Virus record (IMG/VR): IMGVR_UViG_2565956726_000008
Strand: one strand, 5' to 3'
Origin: a virus
Taxonomy: Duplodnaviria; Heunggongvirae; Uroviricota; Caudoviricetes
DNA length: 64,000 bases
Below the pieces are notes generated by a model. The model saw nothing but the letters and a program-made list of their open reading frames with translations, was not told the DNA's origin and did no database searches. This document shows, one piece after another, positions 4,280 through 10,031 of this stretch (the first letter of the stretch is position 1; every line of letters starts with the position of its first letter). Both the position numbers and the translations under genes were made by a program.

Positions 4280-4600
4280 TTATGCTATTTTTTCGTAAAG
4301 CACATTCATCTGGGTGCGAATCACTGTTAATATATTGATTGCTGCGTTCTTATTAATGCGTTTATTCGCTACTATTTTTGTTTTCCCATCAATAACAACC
4401 AGATCTGCGTGCAATACATGGTTGAAGTTGACAATGTAATAATACTGTTTATCGCCAACATGTTGAACATATGCACCATTTAGATTTCCTTTATACCCAC
4501 AATCACGCTCTGCGACACCGAAGTCAAATTCGCGGTTCATCTTGCGATTATATGCTACTTGTTTATGTTCCCATTTTCTCATCCATTCATCGCGTTTCAT
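4280..4600 (-). CDS. hypothetical protein (moron cassette 1, distal gene)
   Basis: 106-aa minus-strand ORF 9 nt downstream of the lipoprotein gene, antisense to the tail operon; no family recognised. Confidence 0.45.
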   Translation of the reverse strand: MKRDEWMRKWEHKQVAYNRKMNREFDFGVAERDCGYKGNLNGAYVQHVGDKQYYYIVNFNHVLHADLVVIDGKTKIVANKRINKNAAINILTVIRTQMNVLYEKIA

Positions 4601-4609
4601 GTTTCACCC

Positions 4610-5269
4610 TTAATTCCAGTTGCAAGCGTTTTTCACTTTGTCGATGTGGTTATAAAGACCATCAATGTTAAACACTGCTTTCTCAATGTCGCCAGCTTCC
4701 GGCACTGCTTCAATGATAAATTGTTTTTCGTTAACCAGTTTTTTAATCATTGGGATGGCTTTTTTGCCGTCCCATAATCCAAGAGCTTTATAATTAGTTG
4801 ACCGCCACCACTCAGTAGCTACAGCTTTGTGATCGCCGATCCGGTAGTTAATATAAGTAGTGTCCCCAGCGTCAGTTACATGGTTTGACCATGCTACGAA
4901 CATTTTTGTTTTATTACCCTGGCAAGCGATTGTTAATACAGGTTTGTTTTCATCCCGTGCTTTCAGTGTAGGGAAAGCATCAAGACTTCCGCTGAAATGT
5001 TCTGCTTTCACGAAAAGGAACACGTTTTTTGTGTCCTGCATATCATCTTTTCTTTCGACCACAAGCCACTGTTTACCAGCTTTTTCTTTTGCTAACTGTG
5101 CCTCATATGCGGCTTGTTTTGCTTGTTGTTCTGCAAGCCATTTAGCATTTTTCTCTGCTAATGCTTGTTGTTCTTGAGTGGTCACTATAGGCGCTTTTTC
5201 ATTATCCTCATTGCAACCAACCAGACCCAATACCGCCGCAATCATTGCCACTTTTGCTAACCGTTTCAT
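4610..5269 (-). CDS. lipoprotein (moron cassette 1), function unknown
   Basis: 219-aa ORF; N-terminus MKRLAKVAMIAAVLGLVGC has a signal peptide and lipobox (LVGC); GGTGGG Shine-Dalgarno upstream. Confidence 0.6.
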   Translation of the reverse strand: MKRLAKVAMIAAVLGLVGCNEDNEKAPIVTTQEQQALAEKNAKWLAEQQAKQAAYEAQLAKEKAGKQWLVVERKDDMQDTKNVFLFVKAEHFSGSLDAFPTLKARDENKPVLTIACQGNKTKMFVAWSNHVTDAGDTTYINYRIGDHKAVATEWWRSTNYKALGLWDGKKAIPMIKKLVNEKQFIIEAVPEAGDIEKAVFNIDGLYNHIDKVKNACNWN

Positions 5270-5396: not shown

Positions 5397-7739
5397 ATGG
5401 ATACCAGTGTAGGTACAATTTATTACGAAGTTGATGCGAAAACTAGTCAACTTCTCGTTGCACAACGACAGGCAGACCAGGCCTTTGGGCGTATAGAGCG
5501 CGGCGCAAAACAGGCTGACCGCCAGGTAAACACCCTGAAAACATCCATCAAGGCACTGACCAGGGTTATCCATTTGCTAATTGCTGCGGAGGCCGTGCGT
5601 CAATTCATGGATATGGCGGAGCAAGCAAAAATGCTTCGCGTAAAAATCAAAATGCTTACGGGCGATGCGGAGTCCGCCGGACGGGTTTTTGATGGCCTGA
5701 AAGCAATATCAAAAGAAACAGGCCAAAGCATGAAGGATACCGGGGATCTGTGGCAAGGCTTAGCTATCTCACTGAAGAACACGTCCGCCACTGAAGGGCA
5801 ATTGCTTAACCTGGTAGGTACGATTCAGAAAATGGGGGCATTAGGCGGCGCGTCAGCGGAACAGATGTCTAACTCAATGCGTCAATTCCGTCAGTCTATC
5901 GACGGCGGTGTTCTTCGTGCCGAAGAATTTAACAGCCTGCTTGAAAATACGCCGACCATCGTACAAACAATGGCCCGCCATATGGGATTATCAATGGGCC
6001 AGTTCCGCGCCGAAATGCTGGACGGCAAGATCACGGCTGAAAGGATGGTTAACGCAATACAGGCGGCTACGCAGGAAACAAACGATAAGTTTGCTCAGTT
6101 GCCGCGCACATCCGGCATGGCTATCAATGAGCTTAAAGTAGAAATTATGGGCCTTGTTGAGCAGTTGGATGATCTTTTTGGCGTGTCAGATGGCGTTGTT
6201 TCAGCTATCGACTTGATCACGAAAGGCGTTAAAGGGCTTGGCGATGGCGCTAAATTCGCTAAAACCTGCTTCGACACACTCAAAACGGCTGGTAGCGAAT
6301 TTATCGACATGTTTGATGATGTGGCTGTTAAGGCTGGAGAGGTGGCAGAGAAGATCATCGCAATGGTGACGCCAATCAAGGCGCTAATGGATGGCTATAA
6401 ATGGATGAAGGAGGTAGTAGGAGAGCAAACCGACGAATATAACAGCAACTACGAGAAGAAATACGGGAAGACCGTTGGCAAGGTCATGCAACTACAGGAT
6501 GATCTGACCGCAGCAATCCAGGCTACAGAAGAAGCAAGGAAAAATGAACAGAATGCTGCCAATGACGGAGCGATTACCGGATTCGACAAGCCAGTAGACA
6601 AGCCGAAAAAACAGAAAAAAGAGAAGAAATCGGAAGCTGATCGGCTTGGTGACAAAGGTATAAGCGTTTCTGATCAGTACAACAAAGACGCCGCCGCCAT
6701 GCGCAAAGCGTTGGAGAACGGCAAGGCCATTGATGCTGCATTTGCCCAGGGTAAAATCACGCTCCTTGAGTACCGCGCCGCGCAAAAAGGGATCGGCAAG
6801 GAACTGAAAGAAGAATTAGCACAAATTCCGGTAGATGAATTGCGTGATAAATGGTCACAAATAGTAAGCCCGATGGATCAGCTAAAAGGCGAAGTTGACC
6901 CCATCCAGCAGGCGCAAAATGAATGGGCCATCCGTAAGCAAATGCTTATAGACCTGGGCGCTACTGAAGCGCAACAGAAACAGGAATTGTTAGCCTATGA
7001 GCAACAGATCCGCGATCTGAAATGGGAACAATGGCAGGCGCAAAGCGACACAAACGGCCTTATCGGTGATTGTGTTAATGGCCTTAAAGGCGGAATGAGT
7101 AATGCGCTTGTTGGCCTGTTAAACGGCACTCAATCATTGAGTGATGTTTTTGCTAACTTAGGAAGCAATATACTCGGCAATATCGGTAACAGACTCTCAG
7201 ACATAGCTGCAAACTGGATAGCAGATCAGATCATGATGGAGACACAAAGCAAGGCCACGCAAACAAGTACAACAGCAAGCGCGGTAGCAGCTCAGGGAAG
7301 CATTGCTGCGGCGGCGGCCCCAGCAGCGGCGGCAACTGCGGCGTCAACTGGCGGTAGCTGGGCGGCGGCTGGTTCGGCGGCGCTCACTGCGATCATGTCG
7401 CTGGCTACGTCAATTTTCGGCGGCGGTCGCTTTAATGGTGGTAGCGTCATTGGTGGTAATATGTACCGCGTAGGGGAACACAACAGGCCGGAGCTATTCC
7501 AGACATCTAACGGCAATCAATATATGATCCCTGGCGAGAACGGCAGAGTTATTCCGGGCCGTGATATTGGCGGCGGTGGCGGTATTAGTATGCCTGTCAG
7601 TATCAGCATTCAGACCACGAACGGATTCAGCGACGAAGACAGCCGCAGACTTGAATTAACAATGGAACGTGTAGCCATGAAAATGATAACAAGGGAATCT
7701 CAAAGACCAGGCGGAATGTTGCAACCTCGCCGCAAATAA
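5397..7739 (+). CDS. tail tape measure protein (prophage A)
   Basis: 780-aa ORF, long predicted coiled-coil N-terminal part, Ala/Gly-rich C-terminal segment (AAAAPAAAATAASTGGSWAAAGSAALTA), position upstream of M-L-K-I-J. Confidence 0.8.
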   Translation: MDTSVGTIYYEVDAKTSQLLVAQRQADQAFGRIERGAKQADRQVNTLKTSIKALTRVIHLLIAAEAVRQFMDMAEQAKMLRVKIKMLTGDAESAGRVFDGLKAISKETGQSMKDTGDLWQGLAISLKNTSATEGQLLNLVGTIQKMGALGGASAEQMSNSMRQFRQSIDGGVLRAEEFNSLLENTPTIVQTMARHMGLSMGQFRAEMLDGKITAERMVNAIQAATQETNDKFAQLPRTSGMAINELKVEIMGLVEQLDDLFGVSDGVVSAIDLITKGVKGLGDGAKFAKTCFDTLKTAGSEFIDMFDDVAVKAGEVAEKIIAMVTPIKALMDGYKWMKEVVGEQTDEYNSNYEKKYGKTVGKVMQLQDDLTAAIQATEEARKNEQNAANDGAITGFDKPVDKPKKQKKEKKSEADRLGDKGISVSDQYNKDAAAMRKALENGKAIDAAFAQGKITLLEYRAAQKGIGKELKEELAQIPVDELRDKWSQIVSPMDQLKGEVDPIQQAQNEWAIRKQMLIDLGATEAQQKQELLAYEQQIRDLKWEQWQAQSDTNGLIGDCVNGLKGGMSNALVGLLNGTQSLSDVFANLGSNILGNIGNRLSDIAANWIADQIMMETQSKATQTSTTASAVAAQGSIAAAAAPAAAATAASTGGSWAAAGSAALTAIMSLATSIFGGGRFNGGSVIGGNMYRVGEHNRPELFQTSNGNQYMIPGENGRVIPGRDIGGGGGISMPVSISIQTTNGFSDEDSRRLELTMERVAMKMITRESQRPGGMLQPRRK

Positions 7740-7745
7740 ACTAAA

Positions 7746-7775
7746 TCCCGGTGCAATGCCGGGGTTATTTTTCGT
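7746..7775 (+). terminator. rho-independent terminator after tape measure gene
   Basis: cccggtgcaatgccgggg hairpin followed by TTATTTTT; near-identical hairpin sequence to the terminator at 1198-1229. Confidence 0.55.
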
Positions 7776-7825: not shown

Positions 7826-8080
7826 TCACTTATGAGTGCCTTTCACGCCACATAACTTGTTATAGGCATGGTGCTCAACAATTAACCAAACCTTCAAATC
7901 TTCGCTAAACAGCCTCCAATCAAGATTGATATCCATTTTGTATCCGTAACCGTCGCGTAACTTTTTGGGGTAAACTTCTTTTCTCAGAAAGGCTTTAAGT
8001 AATTCCTTACCTTTCTTGATGATCCGGTCCTGTGCGTTTTTCTGTGCTTTCAGATTTCTGTCAATCGCTACCAGTTTCAT
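7826..8080 (-). CDS. hypothetical protein, possible RelE/YoeB-like toxin (moron cassette 2, distal gene)
   Basis: 84-aa minus-strand ORF; loose resemblance to YoeB/RelE-type toxins (QDRIIKKGKELLK; DWRLFSEDLKVWLIVEHHAY). Assignment is weak. Confidence 0.35.
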   Translation of the reverse strand: MKLVAIDRNLKAQKNAQDRIIKKGKELLKAFLRKEVYPKKLRDGYGYKMDINLDWRLFSEDLKVWLIVEHHAYNKLCGVKGTHK

Positions 8081-8097
8081 AACTCACCCCATCATCC

Positions 8098-8253
8098 TTA
8101 GTTAAGTGCCTTCAGGAAGAAGTCCCGGTATTCATCTTCTTTCGCATTCATCATGAATTGACCGTATTTGAATGCGTCGTCGAAACCCTTAACGATTGCT
8201 ATTTCCACTTGTTCGAATGCGTTATTTAGCATTACTACTACATAGCGTTTCAT
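8098..8253 (-). CDS. small hypothetical protein (moron cassette 2, proximal gene; candidate antitoxin)
   Basis: 51-aa ORF not in the provided track (below 60 aa); ATG at 8251-8253 preceded by GGAGG at correct spacing; stop 17 nt upstream of the 84-aa gene start. Confidence 0.4.
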   Translation of the reverse strand: MKRYVVVMLNNAFEQVEIAIVKGFDDAFKYGQFMMNAKEDEYRDFFLKALN

Positions 8254-8420
8254 TTTGGGCCTCCTTCGTTGGTACTACTTTCTTCTTGCTTTCTATATAC
8301 ATCTTGTTGCGTGCTATGTGAAGCCATTTTGTAAACTAGCTATAATCATTGTGACAATGATCTTATTTTTCGCGTAGAAGCGCGTAAAGATATATACAAA
8401 ATGTAACTTGTGGGGGTTTT

Positions 8421-8774
8421 ATGCCGGAAGTGTTCAGATGGACGCCGCAAAGAAGCTACAGCGTGACCAGGAAGCCAGACGTATCTGTTGTTAAGCTGGG
8501 CGATGGTTATGAGCAAAGACAGGTAAAAGGTATCAATCCATTGCTTGATAGCTACACCCTGGTGTTTAAAGGCAGTAGCGCCGGATGTGGTGATGGTGGA
8601 AACGTAGCAATCCAGGCGGAAGCATTCTTGAGGGCGCGCGGCGCGGTCGAGGCTTTTTACTGGTCGCCGTCAATGGATAACGTGCAAAGGCTTTTTGTCT
8701 GTCGGCAATGGAGCATGACTAAAGACGGGCCTTTGTACACGCTAAACGCAACGTTTGAGCAAGTTGTTGGCTAA
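8421..8774 (+). CDS. minor tail protein M (lambda gpM homolog, divergent)
   Basis: 117 aa; shares lambda M hallmarks (FRWTP..., KLGDGYEQR, C-terminal FEQVVG). Confidence 0.8.
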   Translation: MPEVFRWTPQRSYSVTRKPDVSVVKLGDGYEQRQVKGINPLLDSYTLVFKGSSAGCGDGGNVAIQAEAFLRARGAVEAFYWSPSMDNVQRLFVCRQWSMTKDGPLYTLNATFEQVVG

Positions 8775-8971
8775 TGGGGGTTGTTATGTACGGGACTTGT
8801 GTAGTTGACAAAACTTACGCTTTTACATTGTTTGACGACTATGAGATCAACGACCTTACTGTAAAAGCTGACAACGGCGATATATGGTATCTTCACGACG
8901 TTGGTGATGGGTACGTTGGGTGTAGATCCCGGGAAGGGAAGGAGGTTTTATTTTTGGTTGATGGCGTATAA
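8774..8971 (+). CDS. hypothetical protein translationally coupled to M
   Basis: 65-aa ORF starting in TAATG overlap with M stop; no lambda counterpart between M and L. Confidence 0.4.
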   Translation: MGVVMYGTCVVDKTYAFTLFDDYEINDLTVKADNGDIWYLHDVGDGYVGCRSREGKEVLFLVDGV

Positions 8972-9127: not shown

Positions 9128-9376
9128 CTATAAGTTATCACGCAGATAATTAACGCCCTTATCAGTGACGAATGAATGGTTAACCTGGTTTTCATCCGTC
9201 ATGATGATGAATAACTTTTCATGTAGGTATTTCGCTTTCGGGTACAGCGTTAAACAGACCTGGTACAGTATCCCGCGCTCAATCAGCAAATCAATAAATT
9301 CGTGTTCATGATAACCGATGAGGCGGGCGGCCTGTTTCAACGTGTACACATAATCACCGTGATTGCGCCGCCCCAT
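9128..9376 (-). CDS. hypothetical protein with HTH-like segment (moron cassette 3, gene 3)
   Basis: 82-aa minus-strand ORF; YTLKQAARLIGYHEHEFIDLLIERGIL resembles MerR/excisionase-type helix-turn-helix. Confidence 0.45.
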   Translation of the reverse strand: MGRRNHGDYVYTLKQAARLIGYHEHEFIDLLIERGILYQVCLTLYPKAKYLHEKLFIIMTDENQVNHSFVTDKGVNYLRDNL

Positions 9377-9385
9377 GTTGCCGCC

Positions 9386-9733
9386 TTATTTATCGAATGC
9401 TGAAAGGTTATCGATACAGAAATCTTTCGCCGCTTTTTCGTATTCGCGTTTTGCTTCTGGATCGTCAGCCGGGAAACCTTTTGCGTGTATTTCACCAGGG
9501 CAAGACTGGTCCATAGAATCTGCATAATAAGCAGTGAAGCTACCATTAATATCTTTCGGGTTCATATCTTCCACCTCATCAACTATCTGTACCGGATTAG
9601 CAGCATATTTCACTGGATGGCCTAAACTACATTCAAGAATCCTGCCTTCTTCCAGGGCTACTTCTTCGCTATCAAATAATCCGAAACACTCCTTGCTACC
9701 ACTTAACCACACATCAAGACTGTATTTTTTCAT
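9386..9733 (-). CDS. hypothetical protein (moron cassette 3, gene 2)
   Basis: 116 aa from internal ATG (MKKYSLDVWLSG...); the 149-aa listed ORF would overlap the upstream gene extensively. N-terminus appears paralogous to gene 1. Confidence 0.45.
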   Translation of the reverse strand: MKKYSLDVWLSGSKECFGLFDSEEVALEEGRILECSLGHPVKYAANPVQIVDEVEDMNPKDINGSFTAYYADSMDQSCPGEIHAKGFPADDPEAKREYEKAAKDFCIDNLSAFDK

Positions 9734-9902
9734 TTTTGTTAGCCTCATATTTGACAGGTTCGATCTGGTATCCCAAAAGGCGGTCATCCTCAGCAAGTAA
9801 AAGCGCGTCAACCAATGCTTCACCCTCGTCGTCATACAGGGCGATAACCTTTTCCCTACCGTCTGTCATGAATACCGTCAACTTCCATAGCTTTTCAGTC
9901 AT
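9714..9902 (-). CDS. hypothetical small protein (moron cassette 3, gene 1)
   Basis: 62 aa from internal ATG (MTEKLWKLTVFMTDGREKVIALYDDEGEALVDA...); overlaps gene 2 by 20 nt. Confidence 0.4.
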   Translation of the reverse strand: MTEKLWKLTVFMTDGREKVIALYDDEGEALVDALLLAEDDRLLGYQIEPVKYEANKNEKIQS

Positions 9903-10031
9903 AACGCACCTCCGCGCCATTTTGTTAACTATGCTTCCGTTTGAGTAAAATATACATATTGTAAAAACCGCGATCAATCCATTTTGGTATGATTTAGCGT
10001 GACGCAGATCACAGAATGACAAGGTGAGAAA

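Follow-up and report, generated by a model that had tools for sequence, protein, structure and literature searches.

A conserved minus-strand gene pair between the tape-measure and M genes of an mEp021-type Escherichia coli prophage, and its possible role as an effector-inhibitor cassette

Anatomy of the locus

The DNA analysed here, referred to throughout as the window, is a stretch of 64,000 nucleotides (IMG/VR virus record IMGVR_UViG_2565956726_000008). It belongs to the mEp021/"mEpimmI" group of E. coli prophages and is not lambda. Between the tape-measure gene and the gene for minor tail protein M it carries two small genes on the minus strand, in the following setting:

5397-7739, flanking gene: tape-measure gene (PF20155, phrog_1538)
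7744-7766, both strands: G+C-rich hairpin, predicted intrinsic terminator
8080 to 7826, minus strand: 84-aa ORF, basic protein of PF24732 (ParE_like) and phrog_1525
8090-8083, minus strand: GGGGTGAG within the 17-nt spacer, the Shine-Dalgarno-like run of the 84-aa gene, weaker than that of the 51-aa gene
8253 to 8098, minus strand: 51-aa ORF (ATG 8253-8251, TAA 8100-8098), acidic protein, phrog_29810
8264-8260, minus strand: GGAGG Shine-Dalgarno sequence, 6 nt before the ATG of the 51-aa gene
8254-8420, no strand assigned: divergent control region between the cassette and M, from an alignment of 38 distinct versions
8421-8774, flanking gene: minor tail protein M gene (PF05939)

A preliminary description of this DNA had reported the two minus-strand ORFs, a GGAGG ribosome-binding site, a 17-nt gap and a tape-measure terminator bordering the pair. 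The coordinates of both ORFs proved exact to the base, the ribosome-binding site and the gap (8097-8081) are present in the sequence, and the hairpin at 7744-7766 reads on both strands. This hairpin lies 5 nt past the tape-measure stop (7739) and about 60 nt past the 84-aa stop, and is common to the tape-measure transcript and the minus-strand cassette; the annotations of mEp021 and mEp554 mark the same element as a terminator. The Shine-Dalgarno sequence of the 51-aa gene is kept as AGGAGG or GGGGG in every aligned locus.

In phage lambda, gene H is directly followed by M. Every annotated relative of the window has both minus-strand genes between the tape measure and M, often followed by extra cargo; across 33 loci this cargo, located between the tape measure and the 84-aa gene, ranges from 0 to about 1.1 kb. 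At the H-M junction of all relatives, the cassette is the component of the cargo island that stays constant while the rest varies, and the 84-aa gene is its anchor. Its region shares 81-96% DNA identity with mEp021, mEp554, mEp010, mEp013, mEp044, mEp515 and MagusPhagus, and is matched in 32 of 5,426 complete E. coli chromosomes, 10 of them at ≥99% identity. Two adjacent, co-oriented small genes that end at one terminator, spaced 17-21 nt apart in 42 loci, have the layout of an operon. Their reverse orientation amid conserved genes, their own terminator and the variability of their neighbours across sibling phages are those of a moron. The paper on the mEpimmI group does not discuss the cassette genes (PMC11893012).

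An HNH endonuclease gene lies between M and the 51-aa gene in GCA_054405015.1 (L124, 682-1155), and another follows gene I in mEp021 (L001, 8415 onward); HNH insertions at differing points of the tail cluster suggest homing-endonuclease traffic in this region.

Control region upstream of the cassette

The M-proximal spacer of 167 bp is highly conserved in the 38 distinct versions aligned, including those from loci with a solo 84-aa gene. A direct repeat, TACGCG-N4-TACGCG (8371-8386; 10 nt apart), is invariant across versions, and a perfect palindrome with 7-bp arms, ATCATTGtcaCAATGAT (8345-8361), is confined to the window lineage and not conserved. This spacer, with its repeat and palindrome, lies upstream of the cassette and also serves gene M. 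The plus strand has the clearest promoter element, a perfect TATAAT (8341-8346) directed toward M. M and the tail genes downstream of it may be served by a promoter or regulator site of their own, past the tape-measure terminator. No convincing sigma-70 promoter match was found on the minus strand of the control region, a point in which the cassette differs from phage morons, and an Rfam search detected no RNA element.

Other small genes near the cassette

Two further islands in the nearby part of the window are, like the cassette, on the minus strand. The first (4280-5269), between the tail chaperone region and the tape measure, encodes a predicted lipoprotein of 219 aa, with a signal peptide ending in LVGC and a match to VasI (PF11319, E=6e-16; phrog_1848), followed by a 106-aa ORF without a family. 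The second (9128-10022), between M and L, encodes proteins of 62 aa (phrog_29559) and 115 aa (phrog_38567) and an 82-aa antirepressor-like protein with a KilAC domain (PF03374). The 62-aa protein and the N-terminal part of the 115-aa protein share weak similarity (35% over 52 aa, E=2e-4). By BLASTP the 51-aa protein resembles neither of these two, which rules it out as a paralogue of the small proteins of the M-L island. A 65-aa ORF on the plus strand (8774-8971) immediately follows M; it is a conserved hypothetical gene in mEp021 (gp70), mEp554 and MagusPhagus, where a bidirectional terminator follows it, and lambda is not known to have a counterpart after M. With regard to the 219-aa gene, lipoproteins of the structural cluster mediate superinfection exclusion in the mEpimmI group, and the lipoprotein tested in mEp021 was gp81, encoded at another position (PMC11893012).

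Selection on the two genes

In comparisons with mEp021, mEp554 and MagusPhagus, the 84-aa gene had a dN/dS of 0.09-0.13 and the 51-aa gene one of 0.00-0.07, at dS values from 0.8 to >2.5, which are near or past saturation. By this measure the 51-aa protein is the more conserved of the two; most type II toxin-antitoxin pairs show the opposite pattern, with a toxin more conserved than its antitoxin. Some gene callers give the 51-aa ORF N-terminal extensions, which are unconserved, whereas the 51-aa core is nearly invariant, and the ATG at 8253 is therefore the true start of the gene. Almost no weight can be given to the idea that one or both ORFs are annotation noise within a non-coding spacer between tail genes: both are very short, and the 51-aa ORF has no family beyond PHROGs and is called with differing starts in several records, but the selection analysis (dN/dS 0.00-0.13 at dS about 1 for both genes) effectively refutes it, both ORFs have a ribosome-binding site, the 51-aa core stays invariant while the called extensions vary, and the 84-aa family is spread over unrelated phages and integrative and conjugative elements (ICEs). 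Judged by their substitution patterns, both ORFs are real genes under strong purifying selection.

The 84-aa protein and the PF24732 family

With a pI of 9.9 and a net charge of +10, the 84-aa protein is very basic; it matches PF24732, the "ParE-like toxin domain", over model positions 2-67 of 67 with 45.3 bits and E=9e-12 (gathering cutoff, 24.4 bits). The same model is matched by 30 of 30 close and 22 of 22 distant relatives, and identical copies of the protein carry the RefSeq PGAP name "ParE family toxin-like protein". The toxin-like label is a pre-existing automated annotation and not a discovery made here. Its PHROG, phrog_1525, has no assigned function, a PADLOC search for defence systems gave no match, and a literature search found no experimental work on the PF24732 family.

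Searches with tblastn placed further members, at 27-39% identity, in several kinds of element, and all those tested were confirmed as PF24732. They include the virulent siphoviruses Sortsne, KMB41 and Kosakonia Kc237, the jumbo phages 121Q, PBECO4, K64-1 and RaK2, a Vibrio schitovirus, Serratia phage OS31 and ICE-like plasmids of Pantoea. When the Vibrio and Pantoea members served as seeds, viral scans gave no hits. An alignment of 22 PF24732 sequences has R56 and H70 in every member and is almost without variation at Y73 and N74. The 84-aa protein has the family core, W-R-L-(L/F)-S...W-x-L-x-x-H-x-x-Y-N, in common with the Sortsne-type, Kosakonia, jumbo, Vibrio and Serratia phages and with ICEs of Erwinia, Pectobacterium and Pantoea. 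The mEp021-group subfamily differs from the rest of the family in lacking the Asp-box-like S-x-D-x-G-x-x-W turn, in place of which it has SEDL-KVW, and it has a C-terminal GVKGxHK tail. It is also the only PF24732 subfamily seen with a 51-aa upstream partner or inside a tail operon.

The neighbourhoods of the distant members vary with the element. In ICEs of Erwinia, Pectobacterium, Pantoea, Brenneria and Mixta, the PF24732 gene is the immediate successor of a ParB-family and a DUF2857 gene, in many cases overlapping by 4 nt, and an STY4528-family gene comes next. It forms the fixed component X of a ParB-family/DUF2857/X/STY4528 block in enterobacterial ICEs and plasmids (L006 and L017-L028), and the frequent overlap of 4 nt in this block is with the DUF2857 gene. 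The PF24732 gene of Serratia OS31-type prophages shares 4 nt with a ParB-like gene, that of Sortsne-type phages overlaps a gene of 119-125 aa without known function, and that of jumbo phages stands alone. The genes of the virulent Sortsne-type, jumbo and Vibrio phages are surrounded by arrays of other small genes on their own strand and lack a conserved small partner, and no homologue of the 51-aa protein was found with any PF24732 relative elsewhere, whether in virulent or jumbo phages or in ICEs. ParB and DUF2857, the two families that precede PF24732 genes in the enterobacterial ICEs, are also those of the BisD/BisC operon of ICEclc, in which the ParB-like BisD and the DUF2857 protein BisC are the master activator of transfer competence (PMC7423338). 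Unlike this ICE setting, the window has no ParB- or DUF2857-like gene near the cassette, and the link between PF24732 and BisD/BisC function is only positional.

Comparison with RelE, ParE, YoeB and HigB toxins

The preliminary description had seen a loose RelE/YoeB-like pattern in the 84-aa protein; this pattern gained no significance by sequence, profile or fold search (HMMER, hhalign, PDB). None of the 22 PF24732 members cross-hit the models PF05016 (ParE_toxin), PF06769 (YoeB), PF15738 (YafQ) or PF09907 (HigB) at E<=10. In the other direction, canonical E. coli toxins did not match PF24732, though they cross-hit one another, and YoeB and RelE cross-hit the PF05016 model. The PF24732 profile, aligned by hhalign with YoeB, RelE, YafQ, HigB and a YoeB-family profile, gave probabilities of 0.2-1.3%; the YoeB-family profile was shallow, its homologue search having returned only sequences at least 82% identical. 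With canonical profiles this shallow, the missing homology lowers the probability of a superfamily relationship without excluding it. In sequence and profile searches of the PDB, neither protein, nor any of three alignments, retrieved a toxin or anything else relevant.

The preliminary description had proposed HHpred or structure prediction of both proteins as a check. The predicted order of elements in the 84-aa protein (helix, then three strands, then helix) is compatible with the RelE/YoeB/HigB fold, but the model is poor (pLDDT 65); the 51-aa protein was modelled as a lone helix that we distrust, and the profile hits were non-significant. The best hhalign registers, themselves non-significant, place R56 on the Arg of the HRLVY strand of YoeB and HxxYN on THKEYD of K-12 HigB. 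An invariant Arg and His with a near-invariant Tyr by the C-terminal strands looks nearer the catalytic sets of RelE/YoeB-type RNases than that of ParE. These registers hint at an RNase rather than a gyrase poison, which we treat as a lead and not as a result.

In layout, the cassette resembles the pairs yefM-yoeB, relBE and higBA: the toxin-like protein is of similar size (84 aa, as in YoeB) and strongly basic, and the two genes form an operon with the small acidic partner first. It departs from them in that the 84-aa protein has no statistically supported homology in either search direction, the 51-aa partner has no Phd/YefM, ribbon-helix-helix or helix-turn-helix domain, and the toxin-like gene occurs naturally without its partner.

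The 51-aa protein

With a pI of 5.1, the 51-aa protein is mildly acidic. When 1.84 billion (1.84e9) representative proteins were searched exhaustively with its profile, the only matches were five clusters, all of its own family, and it had none in Pfam, NCBIfam, PADLOC or the PDB. The protein is an ORFan limited to mEp021-type phages. Pfam, NCBIfam, PADLOC, PDB and hhalign comparisons gave no ribbon-helix-helix, helix-turn-helix, AbrB, Phd/YefM, ParD or other antitoxin or DNA-binding signal, and hhalign of its profile against RelB and DinJ was non-significant (probability 0.1-0.2%). A residue pattern like that of ribbon-helix-helix proteins can be read by eye and is a lead only. The AlphaFold2 model is a single helix of 50 residues, which we distrust given the run YVVVML...VEIAIV.

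Linkage, solo genes and decayed alleles

In all 42 viral contigs that carry it, the 51-aa gene lies between M and the tape measure, with the 84-aa gene 17-21 nt downstream. Since it never occurs without the 84-aa gene, and its relatives are confined to this phage group, its function is bound up with that gene. The dependence does not hold in reverse: 31 of the 33 contigs retrieved with the 84-aa protein carry the 51-aa gene, and the remaining two (L048 and L051) do not. An intact solo 84-aa gene is also present in the complete genome of E. coli UMNK88 (L123, NC_017641.1, 1659386-1659640). The type II rule that no intact toxin gene occurs without its antitoxin is broken by these three loci. The solo gene starts 168 nt from M, retains the conserved leader and has a GGGGG ribosome-binding site of its own, and all invariant residues are retained in the solo genes. 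Two solo lineages differ by seven synonymous and three non-synonymous changes; these counts are small but indicate that the solo genes are still constrained.

At least seven frameshifted alleles of the 84-aa gene were found. The two that were looked up both lie behind an intact 51-aa gene, and one of them occurs in two assemblies. All seven frameshifts break in a Lys-rich stretch around CCCCAAAAAG (7987-7996 region, codons ~32-48), which could be slippage-prone and possibly phase-variable, or could reflect homopolymer sequencing error. Frameshifted 84-aa genes behind an intact 51-aa gene present a decay pattern typical of toxin-antitoxin loci.

A single 51-aa allele pairs with 84-aa alleles of 100% to 67% identity. 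A recombination breakpoint is located near window position 8034, roughly 15 codons from the start of the 84-aa gene. The 84-aa protein is nearly invariant over residues 9-45, which fits a conserved contact surface. The setting of the cassette at a recombination hot spot is that of phage moron islands, and like the morons or prophage islands of lambda-like tail operons it is a short reversed insert with its own terminator and with cargo that varies among siblings. Unlike typical phage morons, which are sporadic, it is nearly universal in its own phage group. As to recurrence in other contexts, raised in the preliminary description, the pair with the 51-aa gene was found only at the M/tape-measure junction (42 loci), and relatives of the 84-aa gene do occur elsewhere, partnerless.

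Discussion

Our best explanation, held tentatively and at a little under even confidence, is that the cassette is a prophage moron in which a basic, toxin-like effector is combined with a lineage-specific, facultative acidic inhibitor, in a manner resembling a toxin-antitoxin pair. In this mEp021-type E. coli prophage, the cassette would be a self-contained accessory operon whose transcription begins in the M-proximal intergenic region, runs opposite to that of the tail operon and stops at the hairpin shared with the tape-measure gene. The 51-aa acidic partner would be made first, from the stronger ribosome-binding site. The 84-aa PF24732 protein would be the effector, presumably toxin-like and acting on nucleic acid or the ribosome, with the family-invariant Arg56 and His70 and the near-invariant Tyr73 and Asn74 as its probable working residues. 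During prophage residence, when the cassette is presumably expressed, the 51-aa protein would bind and restrain the effector. The pair would work like a type II toxin-antitoxin system, probably in prophage-borne defence or competition, with a partner that is facultative and no obligate addiction antidote. The anatomy of the locus, the complementary charges, the strong-then-weak order of ribosome-binding sites, the one-way dependence of the 51-aa gene and the frameshift decay of its neighbour are all consistent with an effector that has a small inhibitor of its own.

The mechanism implied in the preliminary description is this same effector-inhibitor model, and its match to a type II toxin-antitoxin pair stood for size, gene order, spacing and the basic/acidic character of the products, but not for the partner, which has no antitoxin signature, nor for the strict pairing, given the solo 84-aa genes. 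Homology to phage proteins outside toxin-antitoxin systems, named there as evidence to the contrary, is likewise found in part: distant PF24732 members lie in such contexts, yet Pfam and PGAP label the family ParE-like. The solo effectors, which are still constrained, and the partnerless relatives argue against an obligate type II addiction module. The missing antitoxin signature and the high conservation of the 51-aa protein point in the same direction and leave real room for a role other than that of a toxin.

Such a role is a substantial possibility, though on the improbable side. In that case the 84-aa protein would serve mobile elements in an accessory or regulatory capacity without being poisonous; it might, for instance, act as a modulator alongside ParB/BisD-type regulators, or take part in early takeover or in countering defences. 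The 51-aa protein would be a co-factor or an independent small protein sharing the operon. This would account for the PF24732 genes right after ParB-family and DUF2857 genes in enterobacterial ICEs (the BisD/BisC families, PMC7423338), the 4-nt overlap with a ParB-like gene in OS31-type prophages, the copies in Sortsne-type, jumbo (121Q, K64-1) and Vibrio phages that have no conserved small partner, the survival of the 84-aa gene alone in UMNK88, L048 and L051, and the absence of a significant link between its family and the canonical toxins. It is harder to reconcile with the placement of the family as ParE-like by the Pfam and PGAP curators, with the strict dependence of the 51-aa gene on the 84-aa gene, and with a basic/acidic, strong/weak layout that looks like inhibitor and effector. 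This phage also has no ParB- or BisC-like gene near the cassette, and the loss of the 84-aa gene to frameshifts where the 51-aa gene is kept suggests that the 84-aa product can be costly.

A broader proposal, which we consider unlikely but worth stating, is that PF24732 proteins are a widespread family of uncharacterised mobile-element effectors or modulators and not addiction toxins. They would be coupled translationally to ParB/BisD-BisC-type regulators in ICEs and temperate phages and unguarded in virulent and jumbo phages, and the mEp021 group would have evolved the 51-aa ORFan as an inhibitor for resident carriage. If so, the cassette would be a facultatively guarded effector and not a toxin-antitoxin pair, and the 51-aa protein a new family of small-protein inhibitors.

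A classical ParE module, with the 84-aa protein as a DNA gyrase poison, the 51-aa protein as a ParD-like antitoxin and stabilisation of the prophage by post-segregational killing, has only the family name "ParE_like" and the two-gene layout in its favour and is very improbable: none of the 22 members matches PF05016 at E<=10, though YoeB and RelE do cross-hit it, the Arg/His/Tyr set would be more like that of RelE/YoeB-type RNases than that of ParE, the 51-aa protein has no ribbon-helix-helix or ParD signal, solo 84-aa genes exist, and an integrated prophage gains little from post-segregational killing.

The pairing of a PF24732 gene with an ORFan, the solo and decayed genotypes and the association with ICE ParB genes are undescribed in the searchable literature. 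Should the pair work as an effector and its inhibitor, it would add a new family of small-protein inhibitors and, in PF24732/phrog_1525, a toxin-like effector family that is common on phages and ICEs. The intact pair, the effector alone (UMNK88) and the frameshifted effector with an intact partner form a natural series that tests whether "toxin-like" labels mean toxicity. The link of PF24732 to BisD/BisC-type ICE regulators could mean that a toxin fold has been put to regulatory use. For the phage in the window itself the consequence is modest: the pair is likely an accessory or defence cassette of a gut-prevalent E. coli prophage group.
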